In this document: positions 3,383-53,990 of the stretch, in pieces
How positions within the stretch are numbered: the first letter of the stretch is position 1
Layout: each line of letters begins with the position of its first letter
Assembly (NCBI GenBank): GCA_964565105.1
Contig: CAZMCG010000001.1
Coordinates: 1 to 57,892, forward strand
DNA: 57,892 nt
Direction of reading: 5' to 3'
Source: an uncultured Candidatus Saccharibacteria bacterium
GTDB taxonomy: Bacteria; Patescibacteriota; Minisyncoccia; UBA6257; Colwellbacteraceae
Program-made: the position numbers and the translations under genes
The notes under the pieces: model-generated
Seen by the model: only the letters and a program-made list of their open reading frames with translations
Database searches by the model: none
Told to the model about the DNA's origin: nothing

Positions 3383-3475
3383 GAGTCGCAGTCTCTATCT
3401 AAAAAGGTGGATCGGATGTTGAATACGCTAGTTTAAATAAAAAAATTACCTGACAATAGTCAAGCAACTTTTTTA

Positions 3476-4165
3476 GAAGGCAATTCATAAGCCGGATTCT
3501 GTTCCGATTTTGTCCGAAGTAATGAGGATACAAAATCGAGAACCCTTCCATAGCTCGTTAGAGCGACGGAGGGTATCTGCCCCACTTCGCCAAAGGCTTC
3601 GCGGGACGCTCAATTTTGTTACCACTCGTAAACTCGTGAACAAAATTGGCGATAGTAATTTATCTGGGCCTTTGATTACTCGCAGGCTCTGTGCGGCACT
3701 CCTCTCCGCCAAAGGCGGAGGGTACGGCCTTGCACCCAAGTAAGGATTTAGCCGTTTCATCCTGGCCTTATTACCCCTATAGCCAGGTAAAGCCATCAAC
3801 GTTGGGATAGGGCTCCCTACTTCCTTTCGGAACTAGGCGTTACTGTTCGCACCTCTATACTTTCGCACGACGGGTGTTACCTCCTAAATCTTTGCTTACG
3901 CAAAAATCGGACCCGACTTCTGTAAACAGAAGTTTAGGGCGCTACCATTGCCAATGCTCCGCATTGGAATTTCGAAGCTTTAGTTTCTAATTTCAAATAA
4001 GCTTTATCGAAACTCGAATTTCAAAATTCGTCATTCCAGTGCGAAGTACTGGCTGGGTGTCCGGACTTTCCTCTCTGTCTGTAAATTGTGTCTCCGGGTA
4101 TAAAGAACAGTCGCAAACTGCGAACTTGGAGAACAAAAGACAGAGCTACTACCTGAATTACCTCC
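3476..4165 (-). ncRNA. rnpB: RNase P RNA (bacterial type), unusually long at about 690 nt
   Basis: On the minus strand: GAGGAAAGUCCGG (4061-4073), ACAGAAUCCGGCUUAU (3487-3502) and AGUGCCGCACAGAG (3687-3700). P1 pairs GGAGGUAAUUC (4155-4165) with GAAUUGCCUUC (3476-3486). There are many GNRA/UUCG-type hairpins and no credible ORF. Confidence 0.85.
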
Positions 4166-4171
4166 AGCGAT

Positions 4172-4200
4172 TTTATACCACAAGATAAGGACGATTTCAA
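4172..4200 (-). promoter_or_regulatory. Sigma70-like promoter for rnpB
   Basis: On the minus strand: TTGAAA (4195-4200), 17 nt, TATAAA (4172-4177), placed 6 nt upstream of the inferred P1 5' end. Confidence 0.55.
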
Positions 4201-5141: not shown

Positions 5142-5236
5142 AGCTTCACCTCCAAACATAACAAAAAACACCCCCCATCGTAAAGATAAGGTTGAAAAAG
5201 TCAGTGAATTGTTGCAGTTTAGATAATATACTTAAG

Positions 5237-5307
5237 TGCCGGATCATCTAATGGTAGGATGCGAGATTCTGGATCTCGTCGTCTAGGTTCGAATCCTAGT
5301 CCGGCAA
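5237..5307 (+). tRNA. tRNA-Gln (anticodon CUG)
   Basis: Hand-folded cloverleaf: acceptor tgccgga/tccggca, anticodon stem cgaga/tctcg with loop ttCTGga, T-arm ctagg-ttcgaat-cctag. CCA is not encoded. Confidence 0.9.
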
Positions 5308-5556
5308 CATTCATTCATACTTTCTTCCGAGAGACAGCTATTTCGATAGTAGGAGTTACTAGTCGTATTGTTATACGGAAAATATAAAACTCATTACATT
5401 CAAACACTTATATTTTCCTACAATACTCCTGCAACTCAGGATACTCTCTCCATAAGTCTCTCAAGAAGAAAATATTCATTCTTATTATTACTTAATGCTA
5501 CCTGCCATCTAAAAGATGGCGGGTTTCCAGGGTTTTTAGGGATTTGAACGGGAAGG
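5301..5556 (+). repeat. Direct repeat copy 1 (AT-rich module following tRNA-Gln)
   Basis: Aligns with 7739-8083 starting from the shared junction ccggcaac|attcattcatac. Identity is roughly 85-90% by eye. It ends in the hairpin ctgccatct-aaa-agatggcggg. Confidence 0.85.
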
Positions 5557-5726
5557 AAATCTTTCCTCTGCATGAAGCTGCGGGCGGGCAGGTGGGGAAA
5601 CGGCCCGCTCCGCCATAGCTTTAGCGAGGCGAGTAGTTTTCCATGGCGGAGTGCACGAACCGATGGGTTCGTGGGGGCAATCTACTGTATAACGGATTGC
5701 GACGTTCGATTACCTAGCCTGGTAAC
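5537..5726 (+). repeat. GC-rich structured element E1 (tRNA-Gln-end-bounded family)
   Basis: The 5' end tagggatttgaacg (5537-5550) is near-complementary (12 of 14) to the 3' end cgttcgattaccta (5703-5716). It contains the conserved core atggcggag-tg-cacgaacc-gatg-ggttcgtg (5643-5673) and ends in cctagcctggtaac, which resembles a tRNA-Gln 3' end. Confidence 0.6.
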
Positions 5727-6079
5727 ACAAGTGAAGCGAGTATTGATGACTTGTGCCTTTCAGTAGTCTCCTGACCCCCCGAAGCCCTTGGCGAAGGGCG
5801 TAAGTTATTGGCCTGTGGTTTTCACGGATAAATGTACATTTATATATTAGGTAGTAGATAGGAGAATGCATTGGTGGGGGAATTTTCCTTGGCTCCCGTA
5901 ATAGCTATTATTTTTACTATCATTGGATACGATGGATATATATTTTACTGCAACACCGCGCTTTCGCTGATAGGGTAAGAAAATATTTTTGATACCCTCT
6001 CTTTTTTCCGAGGATGGCAAGGTTGGAGTCGGTGCCGATGATATGATAAAATGATAAAGATGAACCCAAAAATATTTCG

Positions 6080-6427
6080 ATGAGAAGTCTACGCACGAAA
6101 GAAACACAAAAAAAATATGACGATTACAAAAAATCTGGGGGAATTAGCGGTGAATGCAACTTATGCAAATCAGAACCAATAAAATCGTTCGGGCGCTGGA
6201 GAATCATAGATAACGATTTCCCGTACGACAGAATCGCAGACACTCATCACATGATTATCCCAAATCGCCACATTACTGAAGACGATATTACAGATGAAGA
6301 ATGGGAGGAATTTAAGAAGATGAAAAAGGGCTATATAAACGACAACTATAATTTCATTTTCGAGAACACAATAAAAACAAAAACAATCCCAAAACATTTC
6401 CATATTCAATTAATGGTAGTTAAATAA
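6080..6427 (+). CDS. HIT-superfamily protein (HxHxQ branch)
   Basis: 115-aa ORF with an N-terminal CNLC, FPYD...HHMIIPNRH and a C-terminal HFHIQLMV triad-like motif. Confidence 0.7.
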   Translation: MRSLRTKETQKKYDDYKKSGGISGECNLCKSEPIKSFGRWRIIDNDFPYDRIADTHHMIIPNRHITEDDITDEEWEEFKKMKKGYINDNYNFIFENTIKTKTIPKHFHIQLMVVK

Positions 6428-6790
6428 TAAATATTATGACACTCCGAAAAATCGGACATAGCTCTTTCTTTTTGTTTTTAACGAGCTATTTTATTGAACA
6501 AAAAACCCCGACTTTCGTTTAGCCGAGACTTTTCTAATACCTAAAGAGTGTTTGCTTACATTAGAAAGTTAAAATTGCCACGACTAAACAAAGGGTTATC
6601 GTTCGCACCTCGCGAAATGATAAAGCCAATCGACCCTAGCTTTATCCAGTTGTAGCTGTCTCCGAGGAGAAATCAAACAACAATGCAGTATAATTATAAA
6701 TACATAGGCGCTATTCGCATAAAACAAGGGTTGAGATATAAAAATGTTTAGAGCCCGCAAACGAAACGGGCTCTGTGGTTGGGGGAGGTA

Positions 6791-6973
6791 CTACGCGTTA
6801 CGCGTACGGCGCCCAATGGGTTTTCCCTCACCGGGGATGAGCCTAATGGCTTCATCTAGGTATCTCAAGATCCAGTCCGGCGTTAGGGTGGTGTTGCTGA
6901 GCAGGTAGCGGAGTTCGAGGAGGTTGTCCCGCGCCTCCTGAAGATCTCCTTGTGTTATCTGTGTTGTAGTCAT
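6791..6973 (-). CDS. Hypothetical small protein (GC-rich orphan)
   Basis: 60-aa ORF immediately downstream of 7016-7291 on the same strand. GC is visibly higher than in neighbouring genes. The hairpin agagcccg/cgggctct follows it. Confidence 0.5.
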   Translation of the reverse strand: MTTTQITQGDLQEARDNLLELRYLLSNTTLTPDWILRYLDEAIRLIPGEGKPIGRRTRNA

Positions 6974-7015
6974 TTGTCATTCCTTTTCTCGGTGGACTCT
7001 GGGTCAGTGGAACGC

Positions 7016-7291
7016 TTACACTGTAGTTATGGCCCTGATTTCTTCCAGTTCTTTGCGTCCCTCATTGGTGACAAAAAGCTTTAGGGTTACAGGCGCCACC
7101 TTGATGGCGTTGTTATTTATACGGGAGAGTTCAAGTTTAAGAGCGCGCTCACTAAACCACCAGCCATAACTAGAGTTCGCGATGGCCGTATAGAGTTCAC
7201 TTGCTGTGTACTTACCATAGCCAACATGCTCTAGGAGCACTCTGCGAATTTCGCGACGGACACTGTCTGGGGGATAAATTCCAGGGGGCAT
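7016..7291 (-). CDS. Hypothetical small protein (GC-rich orphan)
   Basis: A strong SD (AAGGAGG) lies 5 nt upstream of the ATG at 7291, which starts MPPGIYPPDSVRR. This start is preferred over the longer TTG start at 7339. Confidence 0.6.
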   Translation of the reverse strand: MPPGIYPPDSVRREIRRVLLEHVGYGKYTASELYTAIANSSYGWWFSERALKLELSRINNNAIKVAPVTLKLFVTNEGRKELEEIRAITTV

Positions 7292-7496
7292 ACCTACCTC
7301 CTTGGGGTAATTGTTAGGGTGCGTACGCTTCTTTACCAAAACATACCAGACTTTATGCTAGAGTGGAAGGTAGGGTTGATGAGAAACTCCCCGAATGTAT
7401 ATAATATAAGTTAGTGTTGGGTGGCGCTTTGTTTGCCCGGCTATTATTCGGAGGAAATGCTTATATTCTATTGCGCAATCATTTCATTCCTCATTC

Positions 7497-7567
7497 TGCC
7501 GGGTGGTGTAACGGTAGCACGCTAGGTTTTGATCCTAGAAATCGGGGTTCGATTCCCTGCCCGGCAA
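7497..7567 (+). tRNA. tRNA-Gln (anticodon UUG)
   Basis: Acceptor tgccggg/cccggca, anticodon stem ctagg/cctag with loop ttTTGat, T-arm cgggg-ttcgatt-ccctg. Confidence 0.9.
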
Positions 7568-7576
7568 CAAAAATGG

Positions 7577-7609
7577 AGTAGTCGTTTTTCTGACGGCTAC
7601 TTTGTTTTT
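7577..7609 (+). terminator. Intrinsic terminator of tRNA-Gln(UUG)
   Basis: Stem agtagtcg (7577-7584) / cggctact (7594-7601) followed by ttgttttt. Confidence 0.7.
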
Positions 7610-7610
7610 G

Positions 7611-7746
7611 TGGCAGGGAATCGAACGCGAAAGGGGTCGGGAAAACAGCTGTTTTCCTGTGGCGGAGCGCACGAACCGAGGGGTTCGTGAAAGTCCCGAA
7701 CTAGTTGAGGGACGAGTGAGATAGCGAAGCGTCCCTGCCCGGCAAC
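7611..7746 (+). repeat. GC-rich structured element E2
   Basis: Starts with ggcagggaatcgaac (7612-7626), the exact reverse complement of the tRNA T-arm/acceptor at 7547-7561. Contains hairpins ggaaaacagctgttttcc and cacgaacc-gagg-ggttcgtg (7670-7689). Ends in tccctgcccggcaac (7732-7746), identical to the tRNA 3' end at 7554-7568. Confidence 0.65.
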
Positions 7747-8083
7747 ATTCATTCATACTTTCTTTCGAGAAACGACTATTTCTATAGTAAAAGCTACTAG
7801 TCGTATTGCTATACGGAAAATATAAAACTCATTACATTCAAACACTTATATTCTCCTACATCAACGAGTGAGAAAAAATGAAGATATAAATATCTTCATT
7901 TTATCCGAACGAGGAAGATGCAAGAAATTGTTTTACAATTTTGCCACAATACTCCTGTACCTTTATTATACTATCTCCATAAGTCTCTCGATAAGAAAAT
8001 ATTCACTCATATTATTACTAAGTGTTACCCGCCATCTAAAAGATGGCGGGTTCCCGGGATTTGTAGGGAATCGAACGGGAAGG
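7739..8083 (+). repeat. Direct repeat copy 2 (AT-rich module)
   Basis: Aligns with 5301-5556 and carries an extra 87-nt insertion at 7861-7947. Confidence 0.85.
7872..7903. terminator. Bidirectional terminator-like hairpin inside the copy-2-specific insertion
   Basis: aaaaa-atgaagata-taaa-tatcttcat-tttt: a perfect 9-bp stem flanked by an A-run and a T-run. Confidence 0.5.
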
Positions 8084-8246
8084 GGTTCCTCCAGAGGCGG
8101 ACAGGCAGGGAAACGGTAGTTTCCCGTGGCGGAGCTCACGAACCGAGGGGTTCGTGAGAGTCCCAAATTAGTTGAGGGACGAGTGAGATAGCTTGTCCTG
8201 TTTATCTCGAGCTACGTCGAGGGACGAAGCGCCCCCGCAGGGCAAC
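8063..8246 (+). repeat. GC-rich structured element E3
   Basis: The 5' part gtagggaatcgaacgggaagg includes a 12-nt complement of the tRNA-Gln(UUG) T-arm. Contains gggaaac-ggta-gtttccc, the core gtggcggag-ct-cacgaacc-gagg-ggttcgtg (8127-8156), an extended gagata...tatctc hairpin, and a degenerate 3' end cgcagggcaac. Confidence 0.6.
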
Positions 8247-8317
8247 AGCCAGTTGAGACCGACTGGAGAGGTTGATTAGAACCTTTTGTTAATGGTTTAG
8301 TGTTATGCTTAGTGTAA

Positions 8318-11052: not shown

Positions 11053-12249
11053 ATGAATAGACAAAACAATCATCGCCGTACTGGTGGGGCTTCTTCTTTT
11101 AGGAAACGACCCCAATCATCTCGAAAATATTCTCACAAAAGGATAGATATTTCGAGATATATTAATACAAATACTCAACCTATTGAGGCTATTAAATATA
11201 CTCATAGGCATAATTTTAAAGACTTCCCTATAGGAGAAAGCCTCAAAGTTAATATTGCATCTAAAGGATATACCACTCCAACTCCTATCCAAGATCAAAT
11301 AATCCCTGAGATTCTAAAGGGATTGGATGTTGTCGGTGTTGCAAATACTGGCACTGGTAAAACAGCAGCATTCCTTATTCCATTGATTCATAAAGCTCAA
11401 GTTAGAAATAAGGAACAAATTTTAATTGTAGTTCCAACTAGAGAATTGGCTCTTCAAATTAATGAAGAATTAAAATCATTTATTAGAAAAACGGGTATGC
11501 GCTCTACATGCACAGTAGGAGGTTCACCAATTGGTCGTCAGATTTCAGACCTTAGGCGCTTTAATAACTTTGTTATCGGGACCCCTGGACGAATTAAAGA
11601 TCTAATTGAGAGAAAAGTATTAAATCTTTCAAAGTTCAACACAGTAGTCTTAGACGAAGCGGATAGAATGCTTGACATGGGATTTATTAACGATATGCGT
11701 TTCATGATGTCTAAAATGCCACACGTTAGGCACACACTTTTCTTTTCAGCCACCGTTTCAGTAGAGATTGAAAAATTAATTAAGGAATTTCTTAAAGATC
11801 CTGTCCGTGTATCAGTGAAGACGGGGGAGACAGCAAAGAATATTCATCAAGATATCGTTAGGATTAAAAAAACTTCTAACAAGATGGATACACTTCATGA
11901 TCTATTAAAGAATAAAGAATTCGATAAGGTTCTTGTTTTTGGCAAAACAAAACACGGTGTCCAAAGGATATCTAACGCCCTTCTTAAAAGAGGACTTTCT
12001 TCAACAGCAATTCATGGAAACAAAAGTCAGCCTCAAAGACAAAGAGCTTTAAGTGATTTTAAAACTAATAGAACTCGCATTTTAGTAGCCACAGATGTAG
12101 CCGCTAGGGGATTAGATATTCCTGATGTAAGTCACGTTATTAATTTTGATATACCAGCTACATACGAAGACTACGTTCACCGTATTGGTCGCACTGGCCG
12201 AATTAATAAGAAAGGTAAAGCACTTACGTTTATTGAACACTCTGTGTAG
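11053..12249 (+). CDS. DEAD-box ATP-dependent RNA helicase
   Basis: Q-motif region TPTPIQ, then ANTGTGKTAAF, PTRELA, DEAD, SAT and HRIGRTGR. Confidence 0.9.
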   Translation: MNRQNNHRRTGGASSFRKRPQSSRKYSHKRIDISRYINTNTQPIEAIKYTHRHNFKDFPIGESLKVNIASKGYTTPTPIQDQIIPEILKGLDVVGVANTGTGKTAAFLIPLIHKAQVRNKEQILIVVPTRELALQINEELKSFIRKTGMRSTCTVGGSPIGRQISDLRRFNNFVIGTPGRIKDLIERKVLNLSKFNTVVLDEADRMLDMGFINDMRFMMSKMPHVRHTLFFSATVSVEIEKLIKEFLKDPVRVSVKTGETAKNIHQDIVRIKKTSNKMDTLHDLLKNKEFDKVLVFGKTKHGVQRISNALLKRGLSSTAIHGNKSQPQRQRALSDFKTNRTRILVATDVAARGLDIPDVSHVINFDIPATYEDYVHRIGRTGRINKKGKALTFIEHSV

Positions 12250-12324
12250 GGGGTTGAGCACGAGTCGTTGATGGGTAGTCAAATCGTACTAGTACGAGGA
12301 GTGTATGGGTATCGTACGCTTGAG

Positions 12325-12349
12325 GTGGGTTCGATTCCCACTATCTCCA
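12325..12349 (+). ncRNA. Orphan tRNA/tmRNA-like T-arm plus 3' acceptor strand (no cognate 5' half found)
   Basis: gtggg-ttcgatt-cccac followed by tatctcc-a. This closely resembles a tmRNA/tRNA 3' end, but no GGAGAUA/GGGGAUA partner lies within tRNA distance upstream. Confidence 0.4.
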
Positions 12350-12482
12350 GGAACTTGCAATCTAGTCAAGGATTCAGTGATTTTTTGATACTGTTCTTTT
12401 GAATAATCTATGCTCTTGAAGGGAGCTTGTTGTGCCGAAAGTATACTTAATACGAACTAGCCTTGAATTGATAGCGTGGATT

Positions 12483-12555
12483 GAGGAAATTGAAGGCGAC
12501 TTCGAATAACTTGATGGAGGACGAGTGAGATAGCGAAGCGTCCCTGCCCGGCAAC
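12483..12555 (+). repeat. GC-rich element E4 (short form)
   Basis: gaggaaattgaaggcgac resembles the E 5' arm. The block 12519-12555 is identical over 37 nt to 7710-7746 and ends in the tRNA-Gln 3'-end 15-mer. Confidence 0.6.
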
Positions 12556-12905
12556 CACGTAAAATAACAAACCCGCCCTCAAAGGTGAGTTTGTTATCAC
12601 GTGGCGCGGCCACGAAAAGTGATTGGTTCACCTCGTGGCGCGGCTGCGGGGACTGGGATTTTTACTCCATGATAAGCCACGGGATAATTTTACGTGGGTC
12701 GGGTGATGAATTGCACAGCAATTCATTTTACGCGACACTTACAATATGTATTATGTCTCGCCCTTCGTTTCTCTCGGGGCTTGCCAAGTGCAAGTACATT
12801 CGACCAGGCTTTCTTCGACTTGGTTTGATGCTACTCACCACAAGTCGCTCAGGATAAACAGTGCAAGCGCTTTGATTAGCTCATAAAATTTAATATGATT
12901 AGTTT

Positions 12906-13154
12906 ATGTATTTTGTTTATATCATCAGGTGTGAAGATAGCAGTCTTTACACTGGATCAAGCCCCAACCCAAAAGAGAGGTTTAAGAAGCATAAAGCTGG
13001 GACTGGCGGCAAGTACACAAGATCTCATAGACCTGTAAACCTTGTTTATATCGAAAAGCTTAATACTAAAAGCGATGCAATCAAAAGAGAGATGCAAATC
13101 AAGAGATGGCGAAAAGACAAAAAAGAAAGACTTGTAAAGGGAGCAAAGCTGTAG
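12906..13154 (+). CDS. GIY-YIG nuclease-domain protein (stand-alone, UPF0213/YhbQ-like)
   Basis: 82-aa ORF with YFVYIIRC..SLYTGSS, the KERFKKHK..G..KYTR region and a YIEKL...A.KRE..IKRW tail. Confidence 0.85.
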   Translation: MYFVYIIRCEDSSLYTGSSPNPKERFKKHKAGTGGKYTRSHRPVNLVYIEKLNTKSDAIKREMQIKRWRKDKKERLVKGAKL

Positions 13155-53745: not shown

Positions 53746-53990
53746 CCACCACGGCGAGCGAGAAGAAAAGAAGTGCACTTTGTATATTTGTTTTCTTCGA
53801 GCGAAACCGTGGCAAACGATAGTGCCACCACGGCGAGCGAGAAGAAAAGAAGTGCACTTTGTATATTTGTTTTCTTCGAGCGAAACCGTGGCAAACGATA
53901 GTGCCACCACGGCGAGCGAGGAGAAAAGAAGTGTACTTTGTATATTTGTTTTATCCGAGCGATGCTGTGGCAAACGATAGTGCCACCATC
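53746..53990. repeat. 79-bp tandem repeat, 3 copies plus a partial fourth
   Basis: Copies start at 53746, 53825 and 53904, with a partial copy at 53983. Copies 1 and 2 are identical and copy 3 has a few substitutions. The repeat lies between the murB stop and the EEP start. Confidence 0.9.

Follow-up and report, generated by a model that had tools for sequence, protein, structure and literature searches.

The window, by which we mean the whole 57,892-nt stretch of DNA analysed, contains an intact tRNA-Gln(UUG) gene at 7497-7568 (ARAGORN; Rfam RF00005, 65.8 bits), the target gene of an element that we refer to as E2 (7612-7747). These features, like all others located below, lie on the plus strand. 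A spacer made up of an A-run, a hairpin and a T-run (h, or term1; 7570-7611) separates the tRNA from E2. E2 itself comprises a 5´ arm (X´; 7612-7626), a conserved core (7620-7697) recognized by the covariance model R1 (86.3 bits, E 6e-22), by its fold and by covariation, a variable P4 hairpin with the 3´ joiner GAGTGAGATAGCGAAGCG (7693-7731, from the predicted fold) and a 3´ arm (X; 7732-7747). Both arms are copies of one tRNA segment, read from the sequence as 7547-7569, which corresponds to the T-loop, the 3´ strand of the T-stem, the 3´ strand of the acceptor stem, the discriminator and CA. An earlier note on this DNA had reported that ggcagggaatcgaac (7612-7626) is the exact reverse complement of gttcgattccctgcc (7547-7561), and our reading agrees; the copied 15-mer covers the T-loop, the T-stem 3´ strand and the first two acceptor bases. 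The 50 nt said to lie between the two copies (7562-7611) do so, and hold the remaining acceptor strand together with the A-run, hairpin and T-run. With up to two mismatches allowed, the 15-mer has three matches in the window (7547 on the minus strand, 7612 and 8062 on the plus strand) where 0.09 are expected, and 0 of 100 shuffles reached three. What the note had overlooked is the direct copy: X, TCCCTGCCCGGCAACA at 7732-7747, is identical to the tRNA 3´ end at 7554-7569.

In the predicted folds, X´ has two partners. The region from 7544 to 7630 forms a single long hairpin (-55.1 kcal/mol, z = -11.8) in which X´ pairs with the gene end across the spacer over 15 bp, followed by a 5-nt bulge and then 20 bp, the bulge (CGGCA, from the acceptor strand) being the sole interruption. 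Folded as an element, E2 is closed by stem P1, in which 7732-7739 pairs with 7612-7619, and contains the hairpins P2 (7638-7646 with 7651-7659) and P3 (7670-7677 with 7682-7689) as well as the P4 stem (7693-7697 with 7709-7713). The 3´ joiner of E2 recurs in two copies of another genome (L074 and L077). Comparison with the paralogous tRNA-Gln(CUG) locus (tRNA at 5237-5308) revealed 90% identity between 5294-5422 and 7732-7860, and the trailer found directly behind tRNA-Gln(CUG) (5309 onwards) also follows X of E2, with an identical junction (ACA/TTCATTC). Because spacer h is missing at the paralogous site, it is clearly part of the E2 insertion. E2 is probably a recent insertion and a young copy of its family.

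The window holds other copies as well. E1 (5537-5728; R1, 38.7 bits) is an older, larger copy placed 230 nt behind tRNA-Gln(CUG), from which its arms (5537-5550 and 5703-5727) have diverged; as previously noted, its start, tagggatttgaacg (5537-5550), pairs at 12 of 14 positions with cgttcgattaccta (5703-5716), one G-U being counted. E3 (8064-8250; R1, 56.2 bits) is likewise older and has decayed arms, X´ at 8065-8076 and X at about 8232-8247; it does start with agggaatcgaac (8065-8076), as had been read before. E4 (12508-12555) is a 5´-truncated copy: of an E2-type element, 48 nt at the 3´ side remain, X(Gln) among them, and 37 nt are identical to 7710-7746. Downstream of E4 are a terminator-like module and then a gene for a small free-standing GIY-YIG nuclease (12906-13154; Pfam PF01541, E 1.3e-21), an unproven candidate for a partner of the element.

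Copies of the family measure 120-190 nt, share a conserved multi-hairpin core and carry no gene. The core consists, in order, of a purine-rich joiner, P2 (mostly capped by a GNRA-type tetraloop), the joiner GUGGCGGAG, P3, the joiner GGGAG and the variable P4. Across 98 distinct copies, in alignments that had been fitted to the model, 97.9% of the P2 and P3 cells were paired and compensatory changes were detected at 17 of 17 core base pairs. Covariation this high was reached in 0 of 500 shuffles, and slid controls were 35-66% paired. The core structure is under selection. Wobbles were asymmetric (25 G-T compared to 6 A-C cells), from which we take the folding strand to be the tRNA-sense strand; on this strand the core would form a cloverleaf-like structure. 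A tRNA-like or tmRNA-like gene on the minus strand was rejected, given that no local T-arm is present there and the wobble asymmetry favours the plus strand. We also rejected an HDV-like or theta-type 3´-processing ribozyme, for which there was no Rfam match and no nested pseudoknot was seen, and fragments of RNase P or SRP RNA, whose motifs vary between copies.

Among 53 genomes of the Colwellbacteraceae, BLAST detected the core in 19 and model R1 in 31, a single genome of 0.4-0.7 Mb carrying as many as 15 copies; the 78-position core occurs about 200 times in these 31 related genomes. A phylum-wide sample of 301 genomes, representing 248 genera, contained the core in 29 genomes and 25 genera, the genomes surveyed being incomplete MAG assemblies. 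Against Rfam at the gathering threshold, the whole window matched nothing beyond the two tRNAs, and relaxing E to 5 for 5200-8300 and 12150-12800 added only chance matches such as mir-961, which is merely the long hairpin. In IMG/VR viral contigs, a strict core pattern had 0 matches and a looser one had 8, with 0 confirmed by the model and 0 near a tRNA. A full-text literature search turned up general work on template switching but nothing that describes an element of this kind. The family is widespread in ultrasmall Patescibacteria and apparently undescribed.

For 78 of 99 unique copies, a tRNA on the same strand ends less than 200 nt upstream, and nearly all amino-acid types are represented. 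When 20 copies were sampled from elsewhere in the phylum, outside this family, 17 had the same arrangement. Other targets are tmRNA-like ends and protein genes, occupied at the 3´ end for rpsI and rplK and at the 5´ end for lepA and typA. The tRNA behind which an element sits is complete, and the host gene is left uninterrupted. Which subset of tRNAs is occupied differs from genome to genome; at orthologous tRNA-Met sites within one genus, two genomes are empty and two others are filled. Here the spacer of the filled allele and the terminator resident in the empty one are homologous. The right-hand junction in this comparison is masked by another repeat family. An exact search of metagenome contigs for the predicted empty tRNA-Gln site gave 0 matches. 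Tandem units of the form [X-h-X´-core] exist. Several copies are at contig ends.

The order at a target is gene end, spacer, X´, core, X, that is sense, antisense, sense. X´, on the 5´ side, is an antisense copy of 10-20 nt, while X, on the 3´ side, is a sense copy reaching from the T-loop as far as the gene end and, in some cases, across the terminator; both arms begin at the T-loop and extend towards the gene end. X´ can pair with two partners: the gene end on the far side of the spacer, or X, which closes the core. X´ directly abuts the core and in most copies begins at tRNA position -22. For the direct repeat the starting point is -22, -18 or -16, and the end point varies from +0 to beyond +25; the start falls between -24 and -12 in 74 of the 78 tRNA-linked copies; the resident trailer and terminator are also duplicated in at least 10 copies. 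For the 67 copies with a spacer, positions -22 to -14 were paired with X´ in 91-99% of folds, compared with only about 45% for the acceptor end (-7 to -1) and about 80% for the trailer/terminator. A candidate interpretation of X´, a sense copy of the T-stem 5´ strand left by insertion into a hairpin T-loop, was rejected because X´ is Watson-Crick complementary to the 3´ strand at G-U positions and because it continues into the complement of the acceptor strand.

We then asked how the two arms relate to the target and to each other. In a three-way comparison of tRNA, X´ and X across the 78 tRNA-linked copies, all were the same at 736 of 931 positions, 82 positions were changed in X´ only and 107 in X only, and X´ and X agreed against the tRNA at just 3. 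tRNA-specific T-loop variants are mirrored in X´, and X´ is complementary to the functional upstream copy at 15/15 positions in E2, 15/15 at rpsI and 17/17 at lepA. Where the target is a protein gene, synonymous sites and some coding sites distinguish the functional gene end from the displaced one. Mismatches in the arms are without compensation. Both arms are derived from the target and match the adjacent tRNA rather than each other. When the 5´ arm was compared with the neighbouring tRNA in other genomes, a check proposed in the earlier note, the arm did track the tRNA.

The bodies of the elements have a different history from the arms. The nearest relative of a body was in the same genome at a different target for 23 of 99 copies and in another genome at the same target for only 7 of 99, which rejects the possibility that each lineage is tied to one tRNA and spreads by homologous recombination alone. 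Bodies occupying different tRNAs of a single genome (Pro/Arg, Ala/Pro, Lys/Ser and Gln/Asp) can be 88-94% identical, and in pairs with this level of body identity the outer arms are about 49% identical. Since near-identical bodies at different tRNAs have unrelated arms, the arms appear to be copied from each new target; these sequence relationships show that the element is mobile and has moved repeatedly between different tRNAs within genomes. The suggestion in the earlier note of a mobile element that copies or targets tRNA ends is therefore borne out with respect to mobility, though not for its terminal inverted repeats, which are not the element's own but are copied for each target.

We looked for enzymes that might accompany the element, the searches covering the integrase, the reverse transcriptase and one GIY-YIG protein. 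A PF00589 search gave about one Xer-like tyrosine recombinase per genome irrespective of whether the element was present, and genomes with 8-15 element copies have one Xer-like gene. Reverse transcriptase (PF00078) was detected in 10/31 element-bearing genomes and 7/22 element-free ones, and is lacking from G015, G017, G028, G043 and G052, which have 8-12 copies each. Neither integrase nor reverse transcriptase tracks the presence of the element. For GIY-YIG genes the association was weak (25/31 genomes with the element, 11/22 without), and the element-rich genomes G017, G028, G032 and G037 gave no match. Of 11 GIY-YIG copies in a 578-kb genome, 6 lie immediately after the end of a tRNA, a tmRNA or an element. 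Beside the element copies, no IS110, IS605 or Cas-type gene and no transposase was seen, and inspection of the element by eye revealed no dif-like site.

The explanation that we favour, and hold to be probably correct, is that the family is a gene-less mobile element of ~120-190 nt that settles behind conserved gene ends and has its arms recopied from the target. Its sites are sequences of T-loop type close to where highly conserved genes end, for the most part at the 3´ ends of tRNAs. As to how insertion might occur, we infer the following. The arms of the element would be made at insertion, with the target copied outward from the T-loop on both strands. This copying could be a fold-back or template-switch (hairpin-primed) event, for which the near-universal, partly palindromic T-loop sequence (G)TTCGAA would be the seed. 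Once formed, a copy could spread to naive alleles by homologous recombination, the tRNA body serving as the left arm and X as the right arm. Such spread would account for the many direct repeats that end where the gene ends, and for the spacer that came with E2. The conserved core, finally, may be the handle for a trans-acting host factor.

Several observations sit uneasily with this scheme. A fold-back or template-switch origin does not by itself account for the antisense side regularly lacking the complement of the last 5-9 acceptor bases, and a purely host-driven process does not explain the selection on structure in a 100-nt core across the phylum, which is a reason to favour a specific partner. 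In addition, the spacer was inserted at E2 but is resident-like at tRNA-Met, and the inserted unit may differ between events or the account with two routes, fold-back and recombination, may be wrong. A bolder reading, which we put forward tentatively as possible but doubtful, is that this is a new kind of mobile DNA with neither a protein nor fixed ends. Its core, as RNA or as a folded single strand, would recruit the host machinery or a separate small GIY-YIG nuclease, and arms of 15-40 nt would be rewritten from the target at each jump, on both strands and starting from a T-loop-like seed. If this were true, a target address would be carried and renewed in nucleic acid, and the most conserved gene ends would be parasitised undamaged.

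An alternative that we consider unlikely is that the mobile form is a small circle or folded single strand, [X - spacer - X´ - core], inserted by the housekeeping Xer-type tyrosine recombinase or by a phage integrase supplied in trans. X and X´ would pair into a double-stranded mimic of the target that is inserted at the T-loop in the manner of CTXphi/IMEX or attC, and the displaced resident gene end would become X. The order at E2, tRNA(X)-spacer-X´-core-X-original trailer, is the exact product of one strand exchange within X, and a repeat from the T-loop to the tRNA 3´ end is reportedly the classical identity block of tRNA-integrating elements. The perfect complementarity of X´ to the functional upstream copy (E2, rpsI, lepA), the tandem units, the differences between the gene ends at protein targets, as though one came from elsewhere, and the Xer-like recombinase in every genome all fit as well. 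However, an element carrying its own arms could not make frequent jumps of near-identical bodies between unrelated tRNAs, and X´ and X are predicted to agree against the tRNA, which they do at only 3/931 positions. Duplication of the resident trailer and terminator in at least 10 copies, the lack of a dif-like site by eye, a recombinase copy number that does not track the element and the failure to find the core in IMG/VR viral contigs also argue against this reading.

A second alternative, to which we give a little less credence, is RNA-guided insertion, with X´ of the transcript acting as a 15-nt guide that spans the insertion point, X being the target duplication, and a nuclease or recombinase being directed to the matching gene end. 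Models would be the group I internal guide, the group II EBS, the IS110 bridge RNA and the IS605 omega RNA. This is consistent with the fairly constant length of X´ (10-20 nt) and its fixed inner boundary at the core, with X´ spanning the start point of the direct repeat in many copies, and with the RNA-like features of the core, namely GNRA-type tetraloops on most P2 hairpins, G-U wobbles on one strand and conserved purine-rich joiners. The multi-copy GIY-YIG genes that adjoin tRNA, tmRNA and element ends, and their distribution among genomes, point the same way, though not for the four element-rich genomes that have none. A guide borne by the element would, however, need to be altered ahead of every jump, whereas about half of the arm positions differ between bodies of 88-94% identity. 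The target in a filled allele is intact and fully complementary and would have no immunity. The absence of IS110, IS605 or Cas-type genes beside the copies is also unfavourable, and most copies lie behind a terminator, which makes their expression uncertain.

We regard as very unlikely that the copies are a host non-coding RNA or cis element acting on the adjacent tRNA, either with a 5´ arm that sequesters the T-arm of the tRNA or its precursor, or with a tRNA-like 3´ tail that is a decoy or processing signal. The selected core structure, the perfect match of young copies to the cognate tRNA and a 3´ tail that equals the acceptor strand and is single-stranded in the predicted fold could all be accommodated, and about 10 copies have nothing between tRNA and element and would be co-transcribed. 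The same element is found at rpsI, rplK, lepA and typA, however, and its arms at the 5´-end targets lepA and typA are sense gene sequence that is unable to pair with the RNA of the gene, which makes an anti-tRNA RNA acting in trans unlikely. The spread is patchy (31/53 family genomes, about 10% of the phylum, empty orthologous sites), the arms decay uncompensated, including those of E1 and E3, and a terminator-like hairpin precedes most copies. The idea in the earlier note of an RNA that pairs with tRNA-Gln is not supported, given the copies at protein-gene ends, the lost match in the old copies E1 and E3 and the uncompensated mismatches. Hairpin-mediated duplication, also raised there, describes the geometry but does not explain a core conserved across the phylum. 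The reading without any element, by chance or by purely local hairpin-driven duplication at the tRNA-Gln terminator, draws on the inverted copies that short-range template switching creates at quasi-palindromes, as described in PMC8794818 and PMC7202029, but can be dismissed on the recurrence of the 78-position core, with about 200 occurrences among 31 related genomes and further ones throughout the phylum, in a constant arrangement, the linkage to tRNAs, the covariation and the low chance expectation for the 15-mer.

At as many as 15 copies in a genome of 0.4-0.7 Mb, behind nearly every type of tRNA and at tmRNA, ribosomal-protein and translational-GTPase genes, a gene-less element makes up a sizeable part of the non-coding DNA of Patescibacteria, a phylum otherwise known for its extreme streamlining. 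For annotation, many features of CPR genomes described as 'orphan tRNA 3´ ends', 'att-like repeats' or GC-rich hairpin blocks are accounted for by these copies, which can also break assemblies. If a target-matched address is indeed written by host enzymes or a tiny nuclease, this would be of basic interest and a possible tool. Under a more modest reading, a selfish repeat that spreads through recombination and fold-back errors, T-loop palindromes and terminators would seed recurrent structured insertions.

Among known systems, the islands and prophages that integrate at tRNA and tmRNA genes, together with their integrase-less derivatives (CIMEs), are similar in that they occupy the ends of tRNA, tmRNA and conserved protein genes, leave the gene intact, have a direct repeat from the T-loop to about the gene end and form tandem units. 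The islands and prophages use tyrosine integrases (T-loop sublocation), whereas this element is a gene-less 120-190 nt and no integrase tracks it; it also has the extra antisense arm and a repeat of variable length that can include the terminator, and one lineage of element bodies uses many tRNAs where tRNA-integrating elements use one site per lineage. In CTXphi attP(+)/IMEX (XerCD) and integron attC, a hairpin stem likewise rebuilds a double-stranded site from inverted segments, structure, especially that of one strand, outweighs sequence, and a host recombinase could be exploited. The stem described here, in contrast, equals its target and changes with it, lacks a dif-like motif by eye and is without phage or integron context. 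REP/BIME-REPIN (RAYT) sequences, MITEs (Correia, RUP, ERIC) and IS200/IS605-derived palindromes are also small, GC-rich, hairpin-forming, multi-copy, intergenic and non-coding, and often lie beside terminators. These have their own fixed terminal repeats, a short target duplication or none, and a recognisable transposase, while our arms follow the adjacent tRNA; none of them is known to copy 15-40 nt of target both ways or to be bound to gene ends.

Tandem-inversion duplications and switching at quasi-palindromes share the sense-antisense-sense order and hairpin turn-arounds, as well as arms perfected against a nearby inverted copy without a dedicated enzyme (PMC8794818 and PMC7202029). Fold-back duplications, though, are not known to import a conserved 100-nt core or to arise again and again at hundreds of sites in one phylum. 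Guide-bearing RNAs (group I, group II EBS/IBS, the R2 5´ ribozyme, the IS110 bridge and the IS605/IscB omega RNA) combine a structured RNA with a target-complementary segment that spans the insertion point and, like the element, reside in highly conserved genes, the R2 5´ ribozyme using 28S sequence. The element differs in that it leaves the gene uninterrupted, needs no splicing, is not tracked by reverse transcriptase, has no transposase seen beside its copies and has no ribozyme or intron match in Rfam; its core is also too small for a group I or group II fold. Homing GIY-YIG genes such as T4 seg, of which segB lies in a tRNA cluster, recall the small GIY-YIG genes found here, which are multi-copy and often directly behind tRNA, tmRNA or element ends, and intronless homing resembles the proposed spread of the element into naive alleles via flanking homology, even though the link between GIY-YIG genes and the element is loose. 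Against all of these systems, arms that are recopied from each target in both orientations fit no known scheme of transposition or integration.

Direct reading of the sequence confirmed that the 15-mer ggcagggaatcgaac at 7612-7626 is, as the earlier note claimed, the exact reverse complement of 7547-7561, which covers the T-loop, the 3' strand of the T-stem and two acceptor bases of tRNA-Gln(UUG) (7497-7568; ARAGORN; Rfam 65.8 bits). The two segments are separated by 50 nt, and a single hairpin is predicted for 7544-7630 (-55.1 kcal/mol, z = -11.8), with a 5-nt bulge in the acceptor strand as its sole interruption. Allowing up to two mismatches, the 15-mer has three matches in the window, compared with 0.09 expected. 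This antisense copy is the 5' arm (X') of E2 (7612-7747), one copy of a 120-190-nt, gene-less structured element. For two further copies, E3 (8064-8250) and E1 (5537-5728), we likewise found the tRNA-complementary start of E3 at 8065-8076 and the pairing of E1 5537-5550 with 5703-5716 (12 of 14) as previously described. The earlier note did not include the direct copy of the tRNA-Gln 3' end that closes E2 as its 3' arm (X; 7732-7747 = 7554-7569), nor a fourth, 5'-truncated copy, E4 (12508-12555). E1, E2 and E3 have a core in common, for which no match was found in Rfam.

Compared with the paralogous CUG locus, the tRNA-Gln(UUG) locus has gained 178 nt, corresponding to the spacer, X', the core and one copy of X. 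The trailer TTCATTCATACTTTCTT lies directly 3' of tRNA-Gln(CUG), from 5309, and the same trailer adjoins the X of E2 at an identical junction (129 nt at 90% identity; repeat D3). E2 is the young copy, since its arms are perfect (15/15 and 16/16) and the E1 and E3 arms have diverged from both tRNA-Gln genes. Within another genus, G032 and G035 carry the element at tRNA-Met sites that are empty in G033 and G034, and the filled-allele spacer is homologous to the terminator resident in the empty allele. The right junction of the tRNA-Met element in G035 is hidden by a separate short repeat family (GCGCAAAGCTTAAAGCGC...), found on many contigs (e.g. L019:1620-1700) and at more than 40 places in that genome. 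We also noted a 37-nt block that is identical at 7710-7746 (the end of E2) and 12519-12555 (E4), with 4.8 kb of housekeeping genes (obg, an ABC-F gene and a DEAD-box helicase) in between; the pair may have been left by recombination between copies of the element.

With E3 as the BLAST query, the core was detected in 19 of 53 genomes of the same family, and at every locus read it stood behind a same-strand tRNA gene (Pro, Leu, Asp, Arg, Met, Cys, Ser or Tyr), with a 5' arm antisense to that tRNA and a 3' end that copies it directly. A search with a covariance model of the core (R1, 78 positions) found it in 31 of the 53 genomes, at up to 15 copies per genome, and in 29 of 301 genomes (25 of 248 genera) of a phylum-wide sample; 17 of 20 copies sampled from distant genomes had the same arrangement. 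The core is a selected structure: across 98 distinct copies its hairpins P2 and P3 are 97.9% paired, with both-sided changes at all 17 pairs, values reached by none of 500 shuffles, and slid controls were 35-66% paired. The core helices contain 25 G-T wobbles versus 6 A-C cells, and the folding strand is therefore the tRNA-sense strand. P2 is mostly capped by a GNRA-type tetraloop, the joiners GGGAAAGGGG, GUGGCGGAG and GGGAG are conserved and purine-rich, and the hairpin P4 varies between copies. Together with the closing stem formed by the two arms, the modeled core looks like a four-way junction, a fold that would fit RNA, though it could conceivably be adopted by a folded DNA strand instead.

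A same-strand tRNA end, of nearly all amino-acid types, was present less than 200 nt upstream of 78 of 99 unique copies. Among those with no detected tRNA, some are behind tmRNA-like or unrecognised tRNA-like 3' ends, some at the 3' ends of rpsI and rplK, and some at the 5' ends of lepA and typA, within codons for the AH(I/V)DHGK motif, which on the element strand read GGTCGAT or GGTCAAC and are T-loop-like. The order of gene body, intact gene end, short spacer, X', core and X is invariant. At lepA and typA the element faces away from the gene, so X' is the gene's sense sequence; acting as antisense to the gene product is therefore excluded as a general role.

For the 78 tRNA-linked copies, X' adjoins the core directly; in most it starts at tRNA position -22, where GTTCGA begins, and it extends 10-20 nt outward. 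The direct repeat starts at -22, -18 or -16, its end varies between +0 and positions past +25, and at least 10 copies also duplicate the trailer and terminator. X' and X thus share the start position and direction along the target, with the core placed at what would be the turning point of a fold-back. In most copies the tRNA and X' are separated by a terminator-like hairpin, and in about 10 the spacer is only 0-9 nt. In folds of the 67 copies with a spacer, the T-loop/T-stem segment is paired with X' in 91-99% and the trailer/terminator is paired in ~80%, with the last ~7 tRNA bases paired in only ~45%. When each tRNA was compared with its X' and X, all three agreed at 736 positions, X' alone was changed at 82 and X alone at 107, the latter mostly systematic (GTGAAA or GTGAGA where the T-loop stood); X' and X share a difference from the tRNA at only 3. 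Thus, the arms were not inherited from a previous target, and after insertion they decay separately and uncompensated. When bodies were compared without their arms, the closest relative of 23 of 99 was at another tRNA of the same genome and that of only 7 was at the same tRNA in another genome, and pairs with 88-94% body identity have outer arms that are only ~49% identical. The element therefore moves between targets, each time gaining new arms that derive from the target.

About one Xer-like tyrosine recombinase is present per genome, with or without the element, and a reverse transcriptase is found in 10 of 31 genomes with the element, 7 of 22 without, and is missing from several element-rich genomes. 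No copy of the core was found in IMG/VR. GIY-YIG genes of the small, free-standing type (PF01541) were present in 25 of 31 element-bearing genomes versus 11 of 22 without, with no match in four element-rich genomes (G017, G028, G032 and G037). They are strikingly multi-copy: the 578-kb source genome (G000; 40 contigs, rated 97.8% complete) has 11, of ~80-120 aa, at C1:12906-13154, C5:212-415, C8:8815-8985, C25:8975-9169, C14:4909-5109 and 5690-5911 and five further places. Six of the 11 are directly behind a tRNA, tmRNA or element 3' arm, among them the C1 gene behind E4, and two flank the tmRNA gene, which adjoins smpB on C14. GIY-YIG is at most a candidate partner of the element. A terminator-like module, CACGTAAAATAACAAAccc...GTTTGTTAT, follows X at window 12556-12790, G000:C5:55-222 and G000:C8 ~6030-6080, where X differs (Gln, Met and Pro), and at two of these loci it runs into a common ~200-nt leader of a GIY-YIG gene (77% identity). 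On two short contigs of one genus (G031:C77 and G035:C12), a reverse-transcriptase match has a small GIY-YIG match within ~1-1.5 kb.

The arms were most likely made at insertion by copying of the target outward from the T-loop. This reading is suggested by several features: each arm has a constant inner and a variable outer boundary, the arms are identical to the target next to them, the sense-antisense-sense order turns at two hairpin-rich places (terminator and core), and a tracking enzyme is lacking. The seed for copying would be the near-universal, partly palindromic (G)TTCGAA, and synthesis would proceed by fold-back or template switch. This scheme does not account for the outer acceptor strand, whose complement is regularly missing on the antisense side. 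Selection on the core argues for a specific factor. Later spread into naive alleles could occur by ordinary recombination, with the tRNA body as left and X as right homology, which would account for the many repeats that stop at the gene boundary and for the spacer that E2 brought with it. There are two main rivals. Integration of a folded circle by an Xer-type recombinase is disfavoured by the retargeting and by the finding that X' and X share a difference from the tRNA at only 3 positions. Insertion guided by RNA is likewise disfavoured, given how fast the arms turn over and the absence of target immunity. The least likely reading is a host RNA that acts on the tRNA.

Other tRNA-tail elements in G000 have different cores. 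These lie on C8 behind tRNA-His (3682), tRNA-Arg(TCT) (5581; read in part, with a run of N at ~5690-5780) and tRNA-Trp, on C20 behind tRNA-Met (11847), on C9 behind tRNA-Asn and on C18 behind tRNA-Thr(CGT). All end in a direct copy of their own tRNA 3' end, some have an inverted arm, and several are composed of CCACC-loop-GGTGG and CCGCC-loop-GGCGG hairpins; more than one core family therefore occupies this niche. Right behind the DEAD-box helicase stop, window 12254-12350 holds an orphan T-arm and acceptor 3' strand, GGTGGGTTCGATTCCCACTATCTCCA, resembling a tmRNA 3' end (positions 347-363 only of the Rfam tmRNA model, 12.8 bits); the true tmRNA 3' end appears to be on C14. The ORF-poor stretch at 3400-4200, called an oversized RNase P RNA in another sequence-only note, had no Rfam match at the gathering threshold, and 53746-53982 contains a 79-nt unit three times in tandem (100%, 100% and 91% identity).

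Rfam has no family for the element, and we found no description of such an element in the literature. Integrase islands, MITE/REP repeats, introns and retroelements each have defining features that it lacks, and we therefore rate it, mechanism aside, as a new kind of element.
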